Part shown: in pieces, positions 31,196 through 44,743 of the stretch
Layout of the letters: the number at the start of each line of letters is the position of its first letter
How positions within the stretch are numbered: position 1 is the stretch's first letter
IMG/VR virus record: IMGVR_UViG_3300030106_006270
Coordinates: 31,891 to 95,890 of that record
Reading direction: 5' to 3' (one strand)
Length of the DNA: 64,000 nucleotides
From: a virus
Translations under genes and position numbers: made by a program
Notes under the pieces: model-generated
The model's database searches: none
What the model was told of the DNA's origin: nothing
Seen by the model: the letters and a program-made list of their open reading frames with translations, nothing else

Positions 31196-31904
31196 CGATA
31201 ACCTTTTTCATTTTTGTTACATCAAGCGAACAATCAGTTGCCATATTAACATCTGATATATCTCTTAAATAAATAGGTTCTATGTTAGGATTTTCTTCTT
31301 TTACAAAGTCATAGACAGATTTCGACTCACCACCAACATTAATTATACCATTTTCACCCAATAACTTTAGAGTAATCTTAGCAGCATCCTCAATCCACAT
31401 CAAACTCTTTTTCATATCTTTAATAGCTTTCGGATGTGGAAATGGTTTTCTGTTCATAGCCATTCTTAATATCAAATGGTTGTCATACATTTGAACTGCA
31501 CACTCACCACCTAATTTAGACCATCCATACTTTGTAAATGGTTTCATAGCATCAGTTTCTTTATAGTTTCCATCCTTACCTTCATAAACATAATCAGTAG
31601 ATATATAAATTATTTTCTTATTATATCTTTCACACATTAATACCACATTAGAAGTTCCAATTATGTTTGTTTGTATACTTAACGATGGATTATCTTCGTG
31701 TATAACCATAGGTCTTGTAATAGCACCAGCATGTATTACATAATCAAAGTCATTTTGAGATTGATAAAAGTACCTATCTAGTTTCCAATAGTCTCTTATA
31801 TCGGCTTGTTTTTTTGTTGGTGTTAAAAATGAGTGTTCGTATTTTCCATACTCAACCAAATGTTTACAAAACTCCCCATCACCTCCTGTAACTAATATTC
31901 TCAA
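31179..31904 (-). CDS. RmlD-like NDP-4-keto-sugar reductase
   Basis: ISTDYVYEG; YGWSKLGGE. Confidence 0.85.
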   Translation of the reverse strand: MRILVTGGDGEFCKHLVEYGKYEHSFLTPTKKQADIRDYWKLDRYFYQSQNDFDYVIHAGAITRPMVIHEDNPSLSIQTNIIGTSNVVLMCERYNKKIIYISTDYVYEGKDGNYKETDAMKPFTKYGWSKLGGECAVQMYDNHLILRMAMNRKPFPHPKAIKDMKKSLMWIEDAAKITLKLLGENGIINVGGESKSVYDFVKEENPNIEPIYLRDISDVNMATDCSLDVTKMKKVIDDSII

Positions 31905-35156: not shown

Positions 35157-35883
35157 TATTCAACTCCTCTAAGATTTCAACATCATCACAGACTCTTTTT
35201 ATCTGTGTATAGTATTGTCCACTATTTTCTTTGCCAGGCACACCCCAAGGTTTGTGTATTCCAAATGGAGCGTTGTCATCTAACGGATACATATAACTAC
35301 TGTCTATAGAAAAACTTAAAACCTCTTTTACCTTTGGTCTATCAGTAACGCAAGCAGAAACAAAATAGTCTTCACAAGGATTACCCCCATTAGCTAAATA
35401 TGATTCTAACTTATTTTCTATTATATCTAACATAAATTCTTTCTTTCTAAACGACACCCCGCCATTCATAACTCTGTCATATGTTTGTTCCAAAGATGAT
35501 ATATCAAATGGAAACCCCCACCAGCCACCAATGTAGTTATGGTGCATGTAATCATCTATTTTGTATTTCGAATTAGTACATAACATTGTATCACACTCAA
35601 AGTACAAAACATTATCTGCTACAACTTGGTTCCAAAATTTGCTGGTTAACATTATATCTAAACTTGACTCATCTGCTGTGATTGATTTTATGTTGAGATT
35701 AGTAAAGGTAGTTTTTTCAAAATATTTTTCATTTGAGATAAATTCATTTATGTATTCAAAATTATCAGTGCCATAAAATATTTGTAGTTGCCAATCATCT
35801 GGCAAAACTGACATTACATTATTTATTACGAATGGTAGAGCTTTATGTTTTCTAGTCTCTACTATTATCGCTACTTTCTCCAT
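35149..35883 (-). CDS. DUF5672-like glycosyltransferase-related protein
   Basis: IVETRKH; FECD; YIGGWW; NGGVSFRK; EDYF; FGIHKPW. Confidence 0.75.
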   Translation of the reverse strand: MEKVAIIVETRKHKALPFVINNVMSVLPDDWQLQIFYGTDNFEYINEFISNEKYFEKTTFTNLNIKSITADESSLDIMLTSKFWNQVVADNVLYFECDTMLCTNSKYKIDDYMHHNYIGGWWGFPFDISSLEQTYDRVMNGGVSFRKKEFMLDIIENKLESYLANGGNPCEDYFVSACVTDRPKVKEVLSFSIDSSYMYPLDDNAPFGIHKPWGVPGKENSGQYYTQIKRVCDDVEILEELNNV

Positions 35884-37493
35884 AACTTACTTACCAATAT
35901 ACCGTAATCTCTGAAATACAAATGGTCTATATTAGTTCTTAGAAAACAATCTAATCCATGCTCTGGCGTTTCAACTATTGGTTCTCTATCATTGAAGCTG
36001 GTATTTAATACTATGGGAACACCAGTCTTTTTCCTAAACTTATCGATAAAATTATAGTACCATTCATTATCTTCTTTTTTCACAGTCTGAAGTCTAGCAG
36101 TATAATCATGATGTAAAACCGCTGGAACTTTTTCACCCATTCCCTCTTTGAACTTAAGCGCAATGCTCATATATGGACTGTCAACATCATGTACAAACCA
36201 ATCTTTGACATAATCTCTGAGTATTGATGGTGCGAATGGTCGAAACCACTGTCTATGTTTTACCTTTTCATTTACTATATCTTTGTTTTCTTCTGACCTC
36301 GGGTCTGCTAAAATACTTCTATTACCTAACGCTCTCCTACCTGACTCAGAGCCACCACCGAAAACTGAAATGATTTTCTTTTGAGTCATTAACTCAATCA
36401 CATAATCATCGTCACAACCGATAGTTTCAATTTCATCTGCTCTATCTAATATGGCAGATTCAACCTGTTCTTCGCTGTAAGTATATCCCAAATAAGGACT
36501 CCAATTCTTTGGATTGTCATATACTCTTGGTTTATCTAAGATTTGATGCCAGACATATCGAGAAGAACCTAATGATAATCCCGCATCATATGGTATTGGG
36601 TCACAGAATATGTTGATACCAGGAAACCAATCAAACATCTTACCAACTGAAACACAATTCAAACTGACACCACCTGATAAACACAAATTCTTTGGTTTAT
36701 ACTTTTCGATGTAAGGAGTTAAATATGCTTTCATAATCTCCTCAGTTTCAGCCTGTAGTGCAGCAGCTACGTGAAAACCTTCTCTTTCGTCTCTTCTAGT
36801 CTCTTTTGCCAAAAGTCCGTGATTTTTTGGTGTTACATAGCCATCTTTCATATTTTTGAAATGTCCTCGATATTTCTCAGGATCTCCAAGTGCAGCCATA
36901 CCCATAACTGTGCCTGCTTGGTCGCCTCTTGGGTCTCCCCAAGTACCAAGTCCAAATATTTCTCTCGTAACATTAGCCCAATAGAACCCTATATTTATCT
37001 TTGTATTAGGTATCATTTTCAGTGGTTCAATTTTATTATCCTTCCCCAACCAAAAAGTTGTACAGGTATTTACTGCACTTTTACTAGTGTCTATCTCATC
37101 TTTATGGTGTAAGGAACCATCTTGATTGTCTACACCACCACCATCAATAGTCATTATTAGTGCTTCTTTGAAGTTACTACTGAAGAAAGCATTTGCTGCA
37201 TGTGCTTGATGGTGTCCTGTAACATATAATCTACCACCATTCTTCTTTACTACTTCTTCACACATCTCAAGGTCATCCATATATTTATTATCTCTAGGCC
37301 CGCCTGTTCTGTGTGTAGTCATAGAATCTATGTTGTTGACATCTTCATCATTATCTATAAAGAATTTTATCGAATTAGCAACGCAATTTTTTATTCTGTT
37401 AAATCTTTCTATTTCATTATGTACCTTTGGAACACCATCTTCTAAAACTGAGTATGAAGCATCGTGTGCACTGTGAAAACCTACTATTTTCAT
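35871..37493 (-). CDS. O-carbamoyltransferase (NodU/CmcH family)
   Basis: HDAS; HHQAHAANAF; IDGGG; GGVSLN; DAGLSLG; RALGNRSILADP; FRPFAP; LNTSFN. Confidence 0.93.
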   Translation of the reverse strand: MKIVGFHSAHDASYSVLEDGVPKVHNEIERFNRIKNCVANSIKFFIDNDEDVNNIDSMTTHRTGGPRDNKYMDDLEMCEEVVKKNGGRLYVTGHHQAHAANAFFSSNFKEALIMTIDGGGVDNQDGSLHHKDEIDTSKSAVNTCTTFWLGKDNKIEPLKMIPNTKINIGFYWANVTREIFGLGTWGDPRGDQAGTVMGMAALGDPEKYRGHFKNMKDGYVTPKNHGLLAKETRRDEREGFHVAAALQAETEEIMKAYLTPYIEKYKPKNLCLSGGVSLNCVSVGKMFDWFPGINIFCDPIPYDAGLSLGSSRYVWHQILDKPRVYDNPKNWSPYLGYTYSEEQVESAILDRADEIETIGCDDDYVIELMTQKKIISVFGGGSESGRRALGNRSILADPRSEENKDIVNEKVKHRQWFRPFAPSILRDYVKDWFVHDVDSPYMSIALKFKEGMGEKVPAVLHHDYTARLQTVKKEDNEWYYNFIDKFRKKTGVPIVLNTSFNDREPIVETPEHGLDCFLRTNIDHLYFRDYGILVSKLWRK

Positions 37494-38248
37494 TTTAAAA
37501 CCTCCTGTAAAGTCTTTCTATCTATAAATATATCACATTCTTGAATCTTGTCATATTTTAATGCTTCATCAATTATCAAATCAATATCTACTGCGAAGAA
37601 AAAAACCTCTTTTGTTATATCACTCACATCCACTCCCATAAATTTTGAAATCTTTGGTAAAAAGTATCCCAAAGCTCTACCGTGGGATACTCCGTAAATG
37701 CCTGTCATTGGGTAAGATAAAGAATGTAGTAAGTTAGTGCCTGTTATCTCTATAGCCTTTCCACCTAACCTACCAGCTCTTATTAAATCTACCACACTAC
37801 CCTTTTTTCTAAGAATATCAAGTCCTTCAATGCAATATTTTTTACTAACCTTTGTTTTGTTTTTCGAAAACATACTGTCCAAAAAATGACTAACAACATC
37901 ACAGGTTGTATCTTCTATAACCCTTTCTGGCAGATTCAAAAACTCTGAATTAATTATAACCTCTTTTGGTTTCTGTCTTTTTAAACTTTTTTTATCAGTT
38001 CCATCCCAATATACAGACCAAGAGGTTTCTGTAGCACCTGATGCTGTAGTGGGATAACAAACTATAGGTTTACTACTTAATATTTTTGCAGTATCAACAA
38101 CTGCACCACCACCAATTGCAGTCACCTTTTCATAAGAACCTACCTCTGATAATATACTGACATCAGGCGCTCCTTTAACCACTCTAACTTCATCAAAATC
38201 GCTAAGAAAATCTTTTGTAGATTCTGAACATACTAAAAGTTTACTCAA
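37490..38248 (-). CDS. Iron-containing alcohol dehydrogenase, putative phosphonoacetaldehyde reductase
   Basis: GGGAVVDTAK; PTTASG; HSLSYP...SHG; immediately after ppd. Confidence 0.8.
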   Translation of the reverse strand: MSKLLVCSESTKDFLSDFDEVRVVKGAPDVSILSEVGSYEKVTAIGGGAVVDTAKILSSKPIVCYPTTASGATETSWSVYWDGTDKKSLKRQKPKEVIINSEFLNLPERVIEDTTCDVVSHFLDSMFSKNKTKVSKKYCIEGLDILRKKGSVVDLIRAGRLGGKAIEITGTNLLHSLSYPMTGIYGVSHGRALGYFLPKISKFMGVDVSDITKEVFFFAVDIDLIIDEALKYDKIQECDIFIDRKTLQEVLK

Positions 38249-38700
38249 AATAACTCCTTAATTTGTTTGGTATTTTTTTGACAATCCAACTTAACTCTAC
38301 CTGTTTTGCCATCGTTAGTAATTTTGAATATCTTAGTAATTCCCAATAGATTCGTACCTAATGATACACACTCAAATCCACCAACGGATTCATGACACTC
38401 ATTGTCTAAGACATATACAAACAGATTTTTCAAATCCCGTTCAACTATAGTGTGTGTTATACCTAAGTGCATTAGAAGAGCGGCATCACCACTTATAACA
38501 ACTATGTCTTTATCCGTATTAGCAGCCATACCTAACCCAATACAAGGAGCTAATCCCATACTACCCTGCATATAGAATATGTTTTTGTTTTCAGGAAATA
38601 TATTGTACATAGCTCGAGAAATGTAACCAGTGCTTGTAATAAATACAGCATCTTCATGATATGATACAATCGTATCTAATACAAATTCTCTACTGTTCAT
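38245..38700 (-). CDS. ppd: Phosphonopyruvate decarboxylase, ThDP-binding (beta) subunit
   Basis: STGYISR; FYMQGSMG; GDAALLMHLG; DNECHESVGG. Confidence 0.85.
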   Translation of the reverse strand: MNSREFVLDTIVSYHEDAVFITSTGYISRAMYNIFPENKNIFYMQGSMGLAPCIGLGMAANTDKDIVVISGDAALLMHLGITHTIVERDLKNLFVYVLDNECHESVGGFECVSLGTNLLGITKIFKITNDGKTGRVKLDCQKNTKQIKELF

Positions 38701-39062
38701 ACTATAATAAAATTTTCATATCCGATTAATTCCAACATTTCTTTATCAACCCTACCCATAACCTCATGTTGTGGTAAGGTGTGTCTGTGACCAATAACTA
38801 AAAATGGATGTATATTATGTGGTATACACAAACTTGTCAAAGCATTTATACAATTACCAAGACCTGAGTTTTGTAGGTAAACACAACTTTTCGAACCAGC
38901 TAATTCTGCACCAACTGCGATACCAATAGCTTGCCCTTCATTAAGAGCTGGTATGTGATTGAAGCCTGAGTTTTCAATTTGTCTTATGAAAAATTTCAGT
39001 CTACTATCTGGCACACCAGTGAAAAAATCGTATCCGTCTGGTAAATCTGACATATCAAACAT
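38697..39062 (-). CDS. ppd: Phosphonopyruvate decarboxylase, N-terminal (alpha) subunit
   Basis: FFTGVPDS; NEGQAIGIA; YLQNSGLGN; PQHEVMG. Confidence 0.85.
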   Translation of the reverse strand: MFDMSDLPDGYDFFTGVPDSRLKFFIRQIENSGFNHIPALNEGQAIGIAVGAELAGSKSCVYLQNSGLGNCINALTSLCIPHNIHPFLVIGHRHTLPQHEVMGRVDKEMLELIGYENFIIV

Positions 39063-41460
39063 CTGGTATTAACTCCAATATGTCTTTGATTGGTAAGCAC
39101 TTAGAATCACACTCATAAGACCTTTTGTTTTTTAGAATTGTTTTAGCTGTAGAAACCATAGCTGGGTAAGAACTCCTCAGTAAATGATTAGCATAGATAA
39201 CAACATCAACACCTGCCTCTATTAATTCCTGTTCTGTTATCTGGTTATAAGTAGTTGGTACAACCACCAAAGGAACTTTTTTGTCAAACTTTCTATACAT
39301 TATACAGAAAGTAATTACTTCTTTTATATCTCTATCCTTACTGTGAATCATTATACCATCTGCACCATTATCTATGTAAATTCTAGCTCTGTCAAGTGCA
39401 TCATTGAAACCTTTTCCTAAAATCAAACTCTCTATCCTAGCAATTATCATAAAGTCTTTTGTAACTAAAGATTTTTTACCTTCTGATATTTTTTCTGCAA
39501 AATCATCAGCTTCGTCTTGTTTTTGATTTGACGTATCTTCAAATAATGAGTTTCTTTTACTACCTATTTTATCTTCAATAATTACAGCGGACACGCCCAT
39601 TCTTTCTAAAGTTCTAACTGTGTATTTAAAATGCTCAATCATCCCACCATTGTCTAAATCCACAATCATTGGTTTGGTAGTTACATCAAATATTTCACTA
39701 AGAGTTTGACTTACTGTTGTTATATCAACGTATTGATTATCTCTTTTTCCTTTAGATGTGGAATGTGTTAGACTACTCAACCACATAGCATCAAATTCAT
39801 CGTTTCCTACTTTTGTTTTCTCTACTATCAAACCAGTTAAGCCGTTATGTGTTTCTAAAACTCTAACTATAGGTTTAACTTCTAATAACCTTAACAACAT
39901 CGTTCTTCTCACATCAGGTGTAGTTCCGATTTCTTTTAAATGATTATTTATTTTTGTAGATGATATACCTTGTGTATAAGGAACATCAACAATTTCACCA
40001 TCCCACTCCTTCAACTTTTCCGAAACTTTTTGTCGTACTTGCTTTTGAACTCCTTCCAGCCAATCATCACCATGCACAACAAATTTCGGTTTGTACTTCT
40101 CCAAGTTAGGAATGTAATCTAATGTTTCTTGTGGAACAACTGTATGAACCCCAACAATACTTTTGACTATTTCATACCTCTGATTATAAGTTAATGTAGG
40201 CAATCTTTTGTAACTTGCAATTGCAGAATCAGTTAGTAATCCTACCATAACATTACCATGCTTTTTCGCTTCCCTTATTATATTTAAATGTCCGTGATGT
40301 ATTATATCAGCACACATCCCAACATAAGAAATCAATTCAGAACCATCTTCTGGCATTATACCATAATACCAGCACCAATGTCGTGAGTGCTTTAAGTGTT
40401 TTGATAAATCAGCAGCCACATTTTTTATCTTACTACCAGCTAACACATTCCTACGAACTGTGGTGTTATAACCGACATATTTTTCCTCATTTTTTGGTTT
40501 ATGATAAGACAACTGAACATATAAATCATCTTCAATTCTTTTTATAGCTGAAACGGTTGTTGAGTTGTCACTATCTTCTTTACTTCTCCCATCCTCACAT
40601 ACATAGATTCTCTCTGTATCAACCTCATCTAAAACATCATTTGGCAACCTTTCGTCTCTTACTCTATTCAGAATTGTATTTTTGAAGTCGCACATATAAA
40701 TCAAATCTTTCTTAACAGTTTTGTTAGTTATATTATCAGTAACACTACACCAACTCAACCAAGAATCTGGCGGAGACATATGGACATCAATATGATTAGG
40801 TAGTCCGTGGTCTGAAAATAACCAAAACAAGGAATTTTCTTCGGTAAAGTCTATTTTTTTAATGATATTCTTATAACTTTCAACCCAACGCTCTCTTTCA
40901 TTATCAAATTTAGCATCGTGATAATGATTATATTTCAAAAAAATAAAGTGATTCTCATCTTTGGGAAGTTCTTGCATTTTTTCAATAAAATTATACTCAT
41001 CTCCCCTTTTTTTGTATTGTGGTAAGCCACCAACAACTTTATCTTCGATGTAAGGATATATAATATAATCTCTGTTTATAGAACATATCTCATCCGGCAC
41101 AAATCTGAAATTTTCATTATCACCTCTTGTAGGACCCATAGAGTGTATGTGTATCTTCCAATCATCAGGCAGCATATTAAATATCATTTTTTTGTCTGCA
41201 ATTTGCTTTTCAAACTCTCCTTTAGATTTGTAAGTATCCTCATAAGCAATCCCCTTCATTGGATACAACTCAGAGGGTGACAAACCAGAAAACATAGAGG
41301 ATAGGGTAGTAGCAGTCCAACTGTTAGTTATAAAATCAGAACAGTGTAATCCCTTTGATTTTATAATGTCTTCCATACCGACATTTTTTCTAACCATATC
41401 AAACAGTATAGCATATATCTTCATTATAGTTTCCTTATAAAAGCCAACATAGTTGGCCAT
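39055..41460 (-). CDS. pepM: Triple fusion: alkaline-phosphatase/sulfatase-like domain + cytidylyltransferase + phosphoenolpyruvate mutase (likely start 41424)
   Basis: PepM motif EDKIGSKRNS (EDKX5NS) and IARIES; HHGH cytidylyltransferase with VHGDDW and GISST; N-terminal LFDMVR, WTATTLSSMFSG and FSDHG. Confidence 0.92.
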   Translation of the reverse strand: MANYVGFYKETIMKIYAILFDMVRKNVGMEDIIKSKGLHCSDFITNSWTATTLSSMFSGLSPSELYPMKGIAYEDTYKSKGEFEKQIADKKMIFNMLPDDWKIHIHSMGPTRGDNENFRFVPDEICSINRDYIIYPYIEDKVVGGLPQYKKRGDEYNFIEKMQELPKDENHFIFLKYNHYHDAKFDNERERWVESYKNIIKKIDFTEENSLFWLFSDHGLPNHIDVHMSPPDSWLSWCSVTDNITNKTVKKDLIYMCDFKNTILNRVRDERLPNDVLDEVDTERIYVCEDGRSKEDSDNSTTVSAIKRIEDDLYVQLSYHKPKNEEKYVGYNTTVRRNVLAGSKIKNVAADLSKHLKHSRHWCWYYGIMPEDGSELISYVGMCADIIHHGHLNIIREAKKHGNVMVGLLTDSAIASYKRLPTLTYNQRYEIVKSIVGVHTVVPQETLDYIPNLEKYKPKFVVHGDDWLEGVQKQVRQKVSEKLKEWDGEIVDVPYTQGISSTKINNHLKEIGTTPDVRRTMLLRLLEVKPIVRVLETHNGLTGLIVEKTKVGNDEFDAMWLSSLTHSTSKGKRDNQYVDITTVSQTLSEIFDVTTKPMIVDLDNGGMIEHFKYTVRTLERMGVSAVIIEDKIGSKRNSLFEDTSNQKQDEADDFAEKISEGKKSLVTKDFMIIARIESLILGKGFNDALDRARIYIDNGADGIMIHSKDRDIKEVITFCIMYRKFDKKVPLVVVPTTYNQITEQELIEAGVDVVIYANHLLRSSYPAMVSTAKTILKNKRSYECDSKCLPIKDILELIPDV

Positions 41461-42128
41461 TTGTAAGTGTAACCTTTAGGATTAGTATAAGAGTCCACTC
41501 CTATTTTAGTTCTACACCACTTGACTTGACTCTTAATGTCGGACAGTCTTTCTTTAGATATATAATTAGTTTCGGTTATAGTCTCATCGTTATTTTCCAT
41601 ACTATAAAGTAAATCAGTTGTCAATGTATCACCAGATTTTATAACTTCGTAACCATATAAATGAGACCATTCACCACTACAACTATGTAAATCTTCAATC
41701 ACATATAACCCACCTGACTTTACTTCATCCCATAAATAATTCAAAGACACCTGCATTTGTTCCATAGTGTGTCCACCATCATCTATTATCATATCAAACT
41801 CACCACCATTCTCTGATATGAACCTTTTTAAATCATCGGTATTTGACTGATCTCCTTTAAACATTACAGACCTATCTAAGTAAGGATTACCCTCTTGCAA
41901 TTTATTAAACTCATCAACACCATACTCAAAAATATCATAACCATAAACAGTAGCATTTTCAAAATACTCTAACCACATTCTATGAGACCTGCCTGTTTCC
42001 ACACCTATCTCAAGAACTTTACCAATATTATATCTATCTTCCTCTAATATATCGTGATAATGTTTTGTGTAACCCAACTCTAAAGCATCGACATCATATT
42101 TTCTAGTTAAATCTTCTAATGTAGCCAT
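41424..42128 (-). CDS. SAM-dependent sugar O-methyltransferase-like protein
   Basis: VLEIGV; GDQS; IIDDGGH; GGLYVIEDL. Confidence 0.85.
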   Translation of the reverse strand: MATLEDLTRKYDVDALELGYTKHYHDILEEDRYNIGKVLEIGVETGRSHRMWLEYFENATVYGYDIFEYGVDEFNKLQEGNPYLDRSVMFKGDQSNTDDLKRFISENGGEFDMIIDDGGHTMEQMQVSLNYLWDEVKSGGLYVIEDLHSCSGEWSHLYGYEVIKSGDTLTTDLLYSMENNDETITETNYISKERLSDIKSQVKWCRTKIGVDSYTNPKGYTYKWPTMLAFIRKL

Positions 42129-42880
42129 TATATTCTCTTTTCCAAATAATGGTCTTGAACATTGGTATGTCCAACATGTAATATAATTTCATTACCACAT
42201 CCTATGTAACCACTACCAACTCCCCACTGCTGTGGCATTGAATAAGGATGTATACCAGTATTCCAACTAGCTCTACTCATTTGAAGTGGTGCTCTTTTTG
42301 GATTTGTCTCCATCAACCTACAGAATTCACTTAACCAAGCCCTACCTCTGTTATCACTCACATCGAAACTACACCACCATAAATCATAGGTTAATAAATT
42401 ACCTTTACTTTCATCCTCATCTAAATGGTAATCTCCATCGTTACCTCTAGTGTAAATACCATCTACTTTTACCATTTGTCTTTCATTAGTTGGAACACAA
42501 ACTCCAAATTTCTTTGTTATTGGCAAAATAGTCCTTACATCTGATGATATGAACATAAGGTCTGAATCAACAGATATAGCGACATCAGCAGTTGATTCTA
42601 ATAAACCTTTAGCTTCGTAGTAATCACAACAATGCCAACCCCATCTATGATTAGCCTTTGTGAAAGGACTCTTATCTATATCAATCAATCTCACTTCAAC
42701 ATCAGGATAATTCTTACCTAACTCTTTGATATCAGTATACAATGTTAACTTGGCTTCTGGAAAGAATTTCTTTACAGAAGAATATGTTGGGTCTAATCTA
42801 TACTCATCAGTAAAACTATCTGGCTGATTAGCAGTAGACCTCAAACCAAACTCTGAAAATATAAACTCTATATTCATCAA
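42128..42880 (-). CDS. Putative GT-A glycosyl/phospho-transferase
   Basis: LYTD; VDSD DxD motif; cluster context. Confidence 0.5.
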   Translation of the reverse strand: MMNIEFIFSEFGLRSTANQPDSFTDEYRLDPTYSSVKKFFPEAKLTLYTDIKELGKNYPDVEVRLIDIDKSPFTKANHRWGWHCCDYYEAKGLLESTADVAISVDSDLMFISSDVRTILPITKKFGVCVPTNERQMVKVDGIYTRGNDGDYHLDEDESKGNLLTYDLWWCSFDVSDNRGRAWLSEFCRLMETNPKRAPLQMSRASWNTGIHPYSMPQQWGVGSGYIGCGNEIILHVGHTNVQDHYLEKRI

Positions 42881-43299
42881 CTCCTCTCCTTTACAATCTT
42901 AGCTATAGTATTAGTAGTGCTGTAGTCATGATCTCTACTATTGAATACTATATCGATTGGCAAATCATCGCCTGTAAATGGTTTTCCTTTATGGTCTGCT
43001 CCTAATATACGAACATTAATAAAGTCTACATTTTTAGATAGATACTCATATAGTGCTGGTTCACCATCGTACAGAAAAGCAGTATCTACATACTTATTTG
43101 ATTTTACCATCAACAACCTCTCTTCAGGTGTCCATATAGGTTCACTTTTAACTCTACCATCTGGTTGACTAACTTTAGTTTTGTATTCATTAACTGCTAC
43201 TATTAAATGGTCACAGTATTGTGTACATTCTTTTAACATCATAACATGACCAGGATGCATGATATCGAAGTATCCGCTAGTAAATCCTATCACTTGCAT
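42877..43299 (-). CDS. TagD/RfaE-like cytidylyltransferase
   Basis: GYFDIMHPGH; LGADH; YSTT. Confidence 0.88.
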   Translation of the reverse strand: MQVIGFTSGYFDIMHPGHVMMLKECTQYCDHLIVAVNEYKTKVSQPDGRVKSEPIWTPEERLLMVKSNKYVDTAFLYDGEPALYEYLSKNVDFINVRILGADHKGKPFTGDDLPIDIVFNSRDHDYSTTNTIAKIVKERS

Positions 43300-44057
43300 A
43301 TTTCTGTAAATGTCCTTTTAATCCAATAATTAGCATCTCTATTCATAGGGTTAGGTGGTATAGAATTGAAGTGATATACCCAACCTGCATCTAAATAGTG
43401 TAACTCATCAGTCCAATACTCTTTACCAGTCAATACCAATAAATTTTTTCTATACAAATCTTGTAGGTTATAACAACTTGGTAAATATTTTACATCTACT
43501 TTTTCTTTGTGTAACATATAATTTACTATGGTTTGGTCAGTACCACATTTCAACTCATCAATAGTCTGAATAATTTTATCGCTGTTCTCTTTGTAGTAAG
43601 ACTTCATAGCGTCAAAGAATGACTTATGATTACTATTAACAATCTGAAATCCACCGTTAATATAATTCCAAGGATGTATCCTGATACCATCGAATAACTT
43701 ATCACCAAATCCTCTGATACTCCGCAGTACCCACTCATAACAACCATCAACCCTCACACCACAGTATCTATTGTCTGTTTCATCAAAAAAATTAGGACAA
43801 TTTGGATGAACTATAGTATCAGCATCTACCATCAGTATTTGATTATATTCGATTTGATTAGCTTCAAGTATATCAAAAAGATAATACCTTTGCCAGGTAA
43901 TTTTCATATAATCCACAGGATATAATAAATCTTCCCACACTAATAATTCACAGCTATTTTTTTCACACCAATTCTTCCAACTGTTGACAGAGTATAAGTA
44001 GGAATCACTCCTACCATTACCTAAATCTATATTTGGAATAAATACTACATTTTTCAT
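43290..44057 (-). CDS. GT-A glycosyltransferase (GT8/GT34-like)
   Basis: VDAD; YINGG; DQTIVNY; YHF. Confidence 0.8.
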   Translation of the reverse strand: MKNVVFIPNIDLGNGRSDSYLYSVNSWKNWCEKNSCELLVWEDLLYPVDYMKITWQRYYLFDILEANQIEYNQILMVDADTIVHPNCPNFFDETDNRYCGVRVDGCYEWVLRSIRGFGDKLFDGIRIHPWNYINGGFQIVNSNHKSFFDAMKSYYKENSDKIIQTIDELKCGTDQTIVNYMLHKEKVDVKYLPSCYNLQDLYRKNLLVLTGKEYWTDELHYLDAGWVYHFNSIPPNPMNRDANYWIKRTFTEICK

Positions 44058-44743
44058 TTTTTTCCTACGTGGGGATTTGTATCTCTTTTGAAATATTTGT
44101 TGTCTCTTGAGTCACCATCAATGTAATTAAACTTTAAATTATTCTTCCAAGCAACATAGTTAAAACTCAATTGGTCTCTCCTGCTACCATACTTTATTTC
44201 TGTCCACCAATCTTCCATAGTTTGTATACAATCTTTTTCATTGTGTCTTCTTAGGATAACCATACCTGTAATCAAACCATTATTTGCAGGATAGCTCAGT
44301 ATTCTGTATGTCTCTAACTGATTCTGTATAACAAATGGATTGTCTTTATAATTCAACACACCCCTTTCTGGTGTGGCATTCATATTTTTTTCACCTAACT
44401 GAAATATAGTTCTAGCTTCTTCATAAGCACAGTTTCTTGAATCCAATCCATTATTATTATGACTAAAAAATGCCACATTAGCGTCACCCAAATACTTATC
44501 AATCAACTCATTAAGATTCTTATCATTCACATACATATTACCATCAATAAAAATACTATACTCATAGTCTTTGAGATACCGATGTGGTAGAATCTTAAAT
44601 CTCTTAGCATTTCTTGTATTATCTTGGTAGATAGGTAGACTATTCTCCTCACTGAAACATTTCCAATCCCAACCTTCAATTTTCTGTGGATTGACATTAT
44701 CGTATCCACCAAATATAGATGTGTAAATTATACTGTTTGACAT
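44054..44743 (-). CDS. DUF616 (TOD1/MUCI70-like) glycosyltransferase-related protein
   Basis: YTSIFGGYD; KILPHRYL; IFIDGN; SRRDQLSFNYV. Confidence 0.85.
   Translation of the reverse strand: MSNSIIYTSIFGGYDNVNPQKIEGWDWKCFSEENSLPIYQDNTRNAKRFKILPHRYLKDYEYSIFIDGNMYVNDKNLNELIDKYLGDANVAFFSHNNNGLDSRNCAYEEARTIFQLGEKNMNATPERGVLNYKDNPFVIQNQLETYRILSYPANNGLITGMVILRRHNEKDCIQTMEDWWTEIKYGSRRDQLSFNYVAWKNNLKFNYIDGDSRDNKYFKRDTNPHVGKK

Follow-up and report, generated by a model that had tools for sequence, protein, structure and literature searches.

Results

A gene of three parts in a T4-like phage genome

The subject of this report is a single minus-strand gene in a stretch of viral DNA of 64,000 nucleotides (nt), positions 31,891 to 95,890 of IMG/VR record IMGVR_UViG_3300030106_006270; the whole of this stretch is called the window below. 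The product of the gene, P0001, joins an N-terminal domain, with a predicted fold of the alkaline-phosphatase (AP) superfamily, to a cytidylyltransferase (CT) and a phosphoenolpyruvate (PEP) mutase (PepM). The source record has 95,890 bp and an estimated completeness of ~52% (CheckV). All genes in the window lie on the minus strand, and G+C content is ~33%. Because PHROG matches in the window include a family-B DNA polymerase, a clamp loader, a ribonucleotide reductase, a DnaB-type helicase and PhoH, we regard it as part of a distant T4-like myophage; the nearest DNA polymerase from a cultured phage, that of Microcystis phage Mel-JY01, is just 47% identical.

The open reading frame (ORF) 39055..41460 contains no stop codon, and neither does the corresponding 806-residue open frame in the source record. 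A start at the upstream in-frame ATG, at 41460, would lengthen the protein by 12 residues. The likely start is M13 at 41424, because this codon overlaps the upstream stop (TAATG) and every relative begins with MKIY, and it agrees with the gene start given in an earlier note on this DNA. Residues such as D9 and T37 are numbered from M13. Pfam and NCBIfam recognise CTP_transf_like (residues 383-504) and PEP mutase in P0001 and give no match in its first ~370 residues.

Fold of the N-terminal domain

A HMMER scan of 1.8 billion cluster representatives defined a family of 110 relatives (50% clustering), mostly stand-alone proteins of 330-400 residues. With 32 homologues as alignment, AlphaFold (AF2) produced a model of the domain with mean predicted local distance difference test score (pLDDT) of 91.9 and predicted template modelling score (pTM) of 0.91. 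Foldseek matches of this model in PDB belonged exclusively to the sulfatase-type alkaline-phosphatase superfamily (PbgA/YejM, S1 sulfatases), with a best E-value of 5e-10. In VIA-align comparisons, Z reached 23.4-22 for S1 sulfatases (307-324 of 355 residues aligned, root-mean-square deviation ~3.6 A), 22 for PbgA/YejM, 20.3 for a phosphonate monoester hydrolase (SpPMH), 19.7 for LtaS, 17.5 for EptC and BcsG, and 15-16 for MCR-1/EptA, iPGM, NPP and alkaline phosphatase. The matches from Z 23.4 to 19.7 align 291-322 residues and cover the whole length of the domain, including the sulfatase-type C-terminal subdomain. The earlier note had proposed an alkaline-phosphatase or sulfatase-like domain, to be refuted by a predicted fold outside the superfamily, and asked for an HHpred or AlphaFold check; AlphaFold returned this fold and no other, so that the refutation fails. 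At the level of the model, the domain is thereby confirmed as a divergent member of the sulfatase-like branch of the superfamily.

Divergence is also apparent in profile searches. The Sulfatase model (PF00884) gives no match to P0001 at E<=1, and among the relatives two of 32 reach E 1.2e-3, the rest being weaker. All of 94 near-length homologues, many of them from Tara Oceans, are annotated as 'hypothetical', and none carries a precomputed Pfam domain. No sulfatase was found by a profile search against PDB sequences; BacD, the top match (E 0.12), was judged spurious. In BFVD, remote structural matches were confined to sulfatase/NPP-like proteins of giant viruses, with no phage counterpart.

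There is no transmembrane segment in the 789-residue protein (maximum 19-residue Kyte-Doolittle mean 1.16), which rules out a membrane homologue of EptA or LtaS. The protein opens directly with strand 1 (MKIYAILFD), there is no N-terminal multi-pass membrane domain, and the domain is predicted to be soluble and cytoplasmic.

Predicted active site

The four motifs quoted in the earlier note, ILFDMVR, NSWTATTLSSMFSG, NHYHDA and LFSDHG, are present exactly. Conservation was counted in 197 distinct full-length relatives. D9, D278 and R280 are kept in all of them, D205 and H206 in 196 each, E277 in 192 and H169 in 191. The column of T37 holds 194 Thr, three Ser and no Cys; Thr stands here in place of the sulfatase Cys.

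In the model, D9 comes just after strand 2-8, helix 37-46 opens with T37, and D205-H206 lie just behind strand 198-203; this placement reproduces the canonical superfamily order of metal ligand, nucleophile and metal ligands. In weak local hhalign alignments, T37 falls on the threonine of C-G-T-A-T in E. coli EptA (E ~0.3), the catalytic Thr of EptA/MCR-1 enzymes, and FSDHG on the sulfatase metal motif S-D-N-G of an AslA-family profile (E 0.3). The formylglycine motif Cys/Ser-x-Pro-x-Arg is absent, the corresponding sequence being T-A-T-T-L, and a true sulfatase is ruled out by its absence. The AP-like domain evolves under purifying selection, with ratios of nonsynonymous to synonymous substitution rates (dN/dS) of 0.10-0.24 in pairs of sister phages that bear the gene cassette described below.

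A single conserved fusion

The triple fusion is real and conserved. A search for the same architecture found it in 11 clusters (90% identity) of public metagenomes, in proteins of 782-808 residues with N-terminal domains 57-93% identical, and in five further metagenome loci (L090-L093, L100; 797-816 residues). All relatives with 57% identity or more are fused, and none is fused at 52% or below. A maximum-likelihood tree unites the 13 fused sequences in a single clade (100/100 support), nested within unfused phages. In the latter (L001, L003-L008, L010-L012, L082, L088), the AP-like gene ends with W-x-W-Y-F-x and a stop codon, and CT-PepM begins in another frame, overlapping or abutting it. For example, in L088 the end of the AP-like gene (…WKWYFNYEW, stop) overlaps the CT-PepM start ATGAGTGGTAA. 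Two loci, L002 and L033, have the reversed order, CT-PepM and then the AP-like gene, still adjacent. The window therefore carries a fusion that arose once, from two translationally coupled genes, and has been kept. A fusion created by sequencing error is ruled out by recurrence in independent metagenome clusters and by formation of a clade.

The author of the earlier note did not recognise this combination, and it is indeed absent from the published inventory of Ppm fusions, which comprises PF12804, PF01467, both, or TPP domains (Rice et al. 2019, PMC6697681). Fusions to nucleotidyltransferases, ~60%, are the rule there (PMC6697681). As there is no Pfam model for the AP-type domain, it would be invisible to such an inventory. 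A survey with 364 huge-phage genomes and metagenome-assembled genomes (MAGs) of giant viruses reports at least one viral Ppm neighbourhood, in a giant-virus MAG (PMC8942020). Our literature search found no prior account of a phage PepM cassette or of a sulfatase-fold phosphonate transferase.

The CT-PepM part and the phosphonate cassette

Among solved structures, the CT domain is closest by far to the CyTase of Fom1 (5x3d; E 3.2e-48, 168 bits), compared with E 2.7e-15 for ethanolamine-phosphate cytidylyltransferase (ECT) and 1.5e-6 for the glycerol-3-phosphate enzyme. The PEP mutase exceeds the TIGR02320 equivalog cut-off and bears the EDKIGSKRNS motif. Fom1 is a characterised CyTase-PepM fusion that makes CMP-2-hydroxyethylphosphonate (CMP-HEP) (PMC6697681). 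In the window, PepM is followed by a phosphonopyruvate decarboxylase (Ppd) split into two genes and by an Fe-dependent alcohol dehydrogenase (Fe-ADH); no aminotransferase of the aminoethylphosphonate type adjoins this cassette. Because a Fom1-like CT with split Ppd and Fe-ADH after PepM follows the logic of Fom1, Fom2 and FomC, we infer that 2-hydroxyethylphosphonate (HEP) is the CT substrate and CMP-HEP the product.

The phosphonate enzymes (37490-39062) are miniaturised: the two Ppd genes encode 121 and 151 residues, and the Fe-ADH has 252 residues, the typical length being ~380. Split Ppd and Fe-ADH are nevertheless 55-83% identical in sister phages and under purifying selection; for Fe-ADH across sister loci, identity is 60-79% and dN/dS 0.05-0.25.

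Surroundings of the gene

Coordinates of the gene, its parts and its neighbours are collected in Table 1.

Table 1. Features of the fusion gene and of the surrounding island; positions are counted from the first letter of the window
Feature	Position	Strand	Remarks
Whole triple-fusion gene	39055..41424	(-)	789 aa counted from likely start M13
N-terminal soluble domain, aa 1-355	40360..41424	(-)	sulfatase-type alkaline-phosphatase-superfamily fold (model), predicted Thr nucleophile
Asp9 codon (ILFD)	41398..41400	(-)	predicted metal ligand, end of strand 1
Thr37 codon (NSWT)	41314..41316	(-)	predicted catalytic nucleophile, N-terminus of helix 37-46
Asp205-His206 codons (FSDHG)	40807..40812	(-)	predicted metal ligands
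E277-D278-G-R280 (EDGR)	40585..40596	(-)	family-invariant motif
Fusion junction and short linker (…HWCWYYG-IMPEDGSELISYVGM…)	40315..40359	(-)	stop codon and overlapping start here in sister phages
CT domain, Fom1 CyTase type, HxGH motif (CADIIHHGH)	39949..40314	(-)	PF01467 E 6e-16
PepM domain	39064..39891	(-)	TIGR02320 371 bits (cut-off 319.6); PF13714 2e-50
EDKIGSKRNS motif of PEP mutase	39547-39576	(-)	within PepM domain
TPP_N half of split Ppd	38697-39062	(-)	adjoins PepM in relatives too
TPP_C half of split Ppd	38245-38700	(-)	adjoins PepM in relatives too
Short Fe-ADH, 252 aa	37490..38248	(-)	predicted phosphonoacetaldehyde-to-HEP step
Carbamoyltransferase, NodU/CmcH-type	35871..37493	(-)	travels with cassette
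Methyltransferase (Methyltransf_24)	41424..42128	(-)	part of conserved module
orf250, virus-only protein with DSD motif	42128..42880	(-)	directly upstream of AP-like gene in most sister loci
Second stand-alone cytidylyltransferase, CT2	42877..43299	(-)	ECT/TagD-like, not Fom1-like
Glycan island	24101-50466	(-)	~26 kb, 31 back-to-back ORFs, uninterrupted

The island contains sugar enzymes (epimerases/dehydratases, DegT aminotransferases, an FdtA-like isomerase, a sugar C-methyltransferase and sugar-nucleotide enzymes) together with glycosyltransferases (GTs) of GT1, GT2 and GT-A-like types, methyltransferases, a carbamoyltransferase and a 2-oxoglutarate-Fe oxygenase. Across its 31 ORFs, no stretch is hydrophobic enough for a membrane span (highest 19-residue Kyte-Doolittle mean 1.36), and no flippase, polymerase or polyprenyl-phosphate transferase is found among their predicted products. 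With no predicted membrane protein, the island looks like a system that glycosylates soluble targets in the cytoplasm, for instance virion proteins, rather than one that makes a lipid-linked surface polysaccharide.

Other transferases of phospho-groups were sought as well. Pfam gave no LicD match (PF04991) in 41 island ORFs scanned, the LicD-like cluster found near relatives has no tblastn match within the window, and homologues of LicD, DUF2061 proteins and radical S-adenosylmethionine (SAM) proteins are all absent from the window. A TagF-like or any other recognisable phospho-group transferase was not found in the scanned ORFs of this phage.

Some of the neighbours deserve separate mention. 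The conserved module runs from a TOD1-like GT to the carbamoyltransferase (35871-44743). The carbamoyltransferase and the Methyltransf_24 gene accompany the cassette in most sister loci, in variable order; one possibility is that they act on HEP, at its free hydroxyl, or on the acceptor sugar. CT2 is closest to ethanolamine-phosphate and glycerol-3-phosphate cytidylyltransferases; with it, another substituent that is activated by CDP may be attached by the island. The AF2 model of orf250 is poor (pLDDT 58.8) and gives weak matches of GT-A/IspD-KdsB type; the protein is probably GT-A-like, which we state with low confidence. Considered as a possible hidden LicD-type transferase, orf250 does not appear LicD-like in this model.

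The wider family

Profile scans of IMG/VR and JGI metagenomes yielded 60 non-redundant distant loci, with ~23-33% identity to the domain in the window. Neighbours were scored with purpose-built hidden Markov models, and 23 of the loci are flanked on either side by 2 kb or more. In 17 of the 60 loci, a PF01467-type CT is no more than 700 nt away, and in 24 such a CT occurs anywhere in the locus (13 of the 23 well-flanked ones). PepM or Ppd is present in 12 (9 well-flanked), and either CT or PepM/Ppd in 27 (15 well-flanked). In the family tree, members linked to PepM/Ppd occupy at least five separately supported places.

In nine non-redundant groups (for example L015:8001-9791, L042, L054, L058, L061, L064 and L070), the AP-like gene belongs to a conserved triad: a stand-alone PF01467 CT overlaps it, and the third gene encodes a small predicted membrane protein of DUF2061. 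DUF2061 neighbours occur in nine groups, always with a CT, and no PepM or Ppd was found in the retrieved flanks of the nine triad groups. Further, B12-binding radical-SAM proteins of ~670 residues are encoded directly beside the AP-like gene in eight groups, six of them with a CT (L056:7303-9315, L041, L055, L069, L014 and others). In fosfomycin biosynthesis, Fom3 methylates CMP-HEP; by analogy, the radical-SAM neighbours could modify a cytidylylated phosphonate before its transfer. Fusions of CMP-sugar synthetase and HAD are neighbours in eight groups.

Members of the family are also fused to GT2 (with or without tetratricopeptide repeats (TPR) or GT1), to FkbM methyltransferase and to DegT aminotransferase. 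One case, L018:4995-14795 from a Pirellulales MAG (also L038 and L040), encodes a soluble protein of 3,266 residues with two tandem AP-like domains (residues 1003-1374 and 1389-1756), TPR repeats, one GT1 and two GT2 domains; judging by its domains, it looks like a glycan assembly line in one polypeptide. Comparable forms of 1,080-1,458 residues are P0029, P0036, P0056 and L037. Such neighbours and compositions place the family among glycan-acting enzymes and tie a large part of it to cytidylyl-activated small phosphates or phosphonates. A narrower, alignment-based scan of 185,579 species genomes returned two MAG loci alone, so cellular members would seem to be rare, or are missed by the search patterns.

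Discussion

We propose that the N-terminal domain is a phosphonate transferase that uses CMP-HEP as donor and a hydroxyl group as acceptor. The proposal rests on fusion, translational coupling and recurrent neighbourhood, and we give it roughly even chances. In this scheme, all three modules of the polypeptide are catalytically intact: the PEP mutase would make phosphonopyruvate, split Ppd and Fe-ADH would turn it into HEP, and the Fom1-type CT domain would make CMP-HEP. Thr37, activated by metal held on Asp9, Asp205 and His206, would then attack the phosphonate phosphorus and CMP would leave. The covalently bound hydroxyethylphosphonyl group would finally pass to a hydroxyl of a sugar built by the island, or to a protein side chain. 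This would be the ping-pong chemistry of EptA and LtaS, but located in the cytoplasm and using a nucleotide-activated donor. The analogy to EptA, LtaS and MdoB had been drawn in the earlier note; it stands as far as the chemistry is concerned and fails for the family, since those are membrane enzymes with lipid donors and the domain in the window is soluble, cytoplasmic and without a membrane domain.

The reasons for this proposal are several. The domain has the fold and conserved predicted catalytic residues, evolves under purifying selection and is soluble, as are the island proteins, and the Fom1-like CT would supply CMP-HEP. The domain is fused or translationally coupled to the donor-making enzyme, its linkage to CT/PepM is deep and repeated across the family, and no other recognisable phospho-group transferase was found in the window. 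Action on glycans is argued by the members fused to GT2, GT1, FkbM and DegT domains. Transfer is chemically plausible because sulfatase-fold enzymes, such as SpPMH, handle phosphonate monoesters. The fold, the architecture and the single origin of the conserved fusion are confirmed, and transferase function is a well-motivated hypothesis; we infer that HEP is made, that CMP-HEP is the donor, that the group is transferred instead of hydrolysed off, and what the acceptor is.

Several observations weigh against a phosphonate transferase. To our knowledge, no enzyme of the AP superfamily transfers from a CMP- or CDP-activated donor. NPP-type members hydrolyse nucleotide anhydrides, and hydrolysis of CMP-HEP would be chemically equally natural for this fold. 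At the level of sequence profiles, similarity to PF00884 proteins falls short of significance, and the residue equivalences come from model topology and conservation. About a third of the well-flanked relatives have neither CT nor PepM, and L013 instead carries a sulfotransferase, methyltransferases and a CDP-alcohol phosphatidyltransferase. A weak LicD-like family lies near eight groups of relatives, and one relative is fused to LicD; in loci that carry LicD-like genes, LicD could be the real transferase. In the window, an alternative transferase may be found in orf250 and two more GT-like genes of the module. Finally, of two IMG/VR phage contigs, L009 lacks 2.8 kb that L003 has: CT-PepM, the two Ppd genes and Fe-ADH up to its last ~66 nt are cleanly deleted, and the AP-like gene is intact (L009:9165-9245 against L003:9175-11967; flanks 95-96% identical). 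The deletion is recent and shows that the cassette is dispensable and polymorphic among close relatives. In a test for relaxed selection after this loss, the dN/dS of 0.40 for the AP-like gene is the highest of nine genes, yet uninterpretable alone, since L009 and L003 are very similar and the AP-like gene is always the fastest-evolving one. Phosphonates are probably not all that the AP-like family handles.

Some of these points lead directly to other explanations. A hydrolase or phosphodiesterase would cleave CMP-HEP, by release of HEP as in FomD or by NPP-like attack at the CMP phosphorus, or it would trim or edit phosphate and phosphonate esters of glycans. The nearest folds are indeed those of hydrolases (sulfatases with Z 23, SpPMH with Z 20.3), NPP-type relatives hydrolyse nucleotides, and the B12-radical-SAM genes beside eight groups of relatives are possibly Fom3-like; fosfomycin biosynthesis involves a transient cytidylylation that is undone by hydrolysis. 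However, the window and the sister phages have no radical-SAM gene, so that making CMP-HEP and then hydrolysing it in one polypeptide would be futile. The surroundings are entirely biosynthetic, and GT and methyltransferase fusions in the family suit a builder better than a degrader, which leaves hydrolysis an unlikely function in our view. Quite unlikely, too, is a generic glycan-decorating phosphotransferase whose substrate is no phosphonate at all, for example a CDP-alcohol made by CT2, with the adjacency of PepM reduced to operon packing. It would account for the large sub-clades linked to CT without PepM (the triad of AP-like, CT and DUF2061 genes), whose CTs are not clearly Fom1-like, for the ECT/TagD-like character of the second CT in the window, and for retention of the AP-like gene in L009. 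It does not explain why the gene is always beside or fused with CT-PepM/Ppd in the clade of the window, down to ~27-31% identity (L033, L074), why the fusion partner is the Fom1-type CT and not CT2, or why the fusion is stably kept down to 57% identity.

Two further explanations appear to us much weaker. The domain adjoins a nucleotidyltransferase, mutases of the AP superfamily use Ser or Thr and metals, and iPGM is among the structural matches; a phosphomutase of iPGM or phosphopentomutase type might therefore prepare a sugar phosphate or a related precursor for nucleotide activation. We consider this very unlikely, since the sulfatase/PbgA/LtaS branch, with its C-terminal subdomain, is much closer (Z 20-23 against 15-16), the linked CT is of the type that acts on HEP, which requires no mutase, and the GT-domain fusions indicate action on a glycan. 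A non-catalytic binding or scaffolding module, comparable with the periplasmic domain of PbgA/YejM, comes to mind because PbgA/YejM ranks high among the structural matches (Z 22). The Asp/Thr/Asp-His set and EDGR are essentially invariant in the 197 relatives, and this invariance, together with the dN/dS of 0.10-0.24, argues against a non-catalytic role, which we hold to be highly improbable.

The phosphonate-transferase proposal can be extended to the family. Its members would then form a new soluble class of AP-superfamily transferases that esterify CMP- or CDP-activated phospho- and phosphono-alcohols onto glycans assembled in the cytoplasm, and marine T4-like phages would build HEP-decorated glycans on virions or other soluble targets. 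This extension is tentative, and we would sooner doubt it than assert it.

Comparison with characterised systems shows what is shared and what is new. The C-terminal 434 residues of P0001 have the CyTase-PepM domain order and the EDKxxxxxNS motif in common with Fom1 of Streptomyces wedmorensis, and Ppd and Fe-ADH follow in the window as in the HEP branch with Fom1, Fom2 and FomC. P0001 differs from Fom1 by the additional 355-residue N-terminal domain of sulfatase fold; the cassette differs by absence of Fom3, Fom4 and FomD, by division of Ppd into two genes, by the short ADH (252 residues) and by its location in a phage glycan island instead of an antibiotic cluster.

Thr-nucleophile transferases of PF00884 attach phospho-substituents to glycans or proteins by way of a covalent intermediate on Thr. 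EptA/MCR-1, EptC, LtaS, OpgB (MdoB), BcsG, GacH and Neisseria PptA resemble the domain in the window in superfamily fold (Z 15-20), Thr nucleophile and predicted Asp(Glu)/Asp-His metal site. Enzymes of the EptA/LtaS type, however, possess multi-pass membrane domains, act outside the cytoplasm and use phospholipid donors, whereas the domain in the window has no transmembrane segment and no PF00884 match and is wired to a nucleotide-activating enzyme. The gene context suggests that its donor is CMP- or CDP-activated rather than a phospholipid. S1 formylglycine sulfatases and SpPMH provide the best overall structural match (~315 residues aligned), C-terminal subdomain included, and the S-D-H/N-G motif aligns locally; unlike S1 sulfatases, the domain has Thr in place of Cys, lacks the formylglycine motif and significant profile similarity, and is found in a cytoplasmic, biosynthetic context.

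Tailoring by LicC/LicD and PntC-type enzymes likewise consists of cytidylyl-activation of a small phosphate or phosphonate, followed by transfer to a surface glycan, the proposed transferase there being LicD-like (PMC6697681); no such protein was found in the window. Attachment of phosphonates after cytidylylation is an acknowledged gap, and the 'Pnt' steps have been called enigmatic (PMC6697681). Fusion of a Thr-type phosphoryl-transfer scaffold with an enzyme predicted to make CMP-HEP offers a concrete, clonable candidate for the attachment step. It also exposes a sizeable viral and metagenomic protein family that is invisible to Pfam-based surveys of phosphonate clusters. If our assumptions are true, then T4-like phages in aquatic metagenomes carry all the steps needed to make HEP esters and attach them, and phosphonylation joins the short list of phage-encoded glycan chemistries. 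Phosphonates in marine dissolved organic matter have two main forms, one of them HEP esters, and the pathway would thus bear on phosphorus and methane cycling.

CT-PepM proteins without the AP-like domain occur in phages of another habitat. Two human faecal contigs labelled 'Bacteriophage sp.' (MT837901.1 and MT836947.1) contain unannotated CT-PepM with ~50% identity to residues 379-801 of P0001; as these are gut contigs, phage Fom1-like genes extend beyond aquatic samples.

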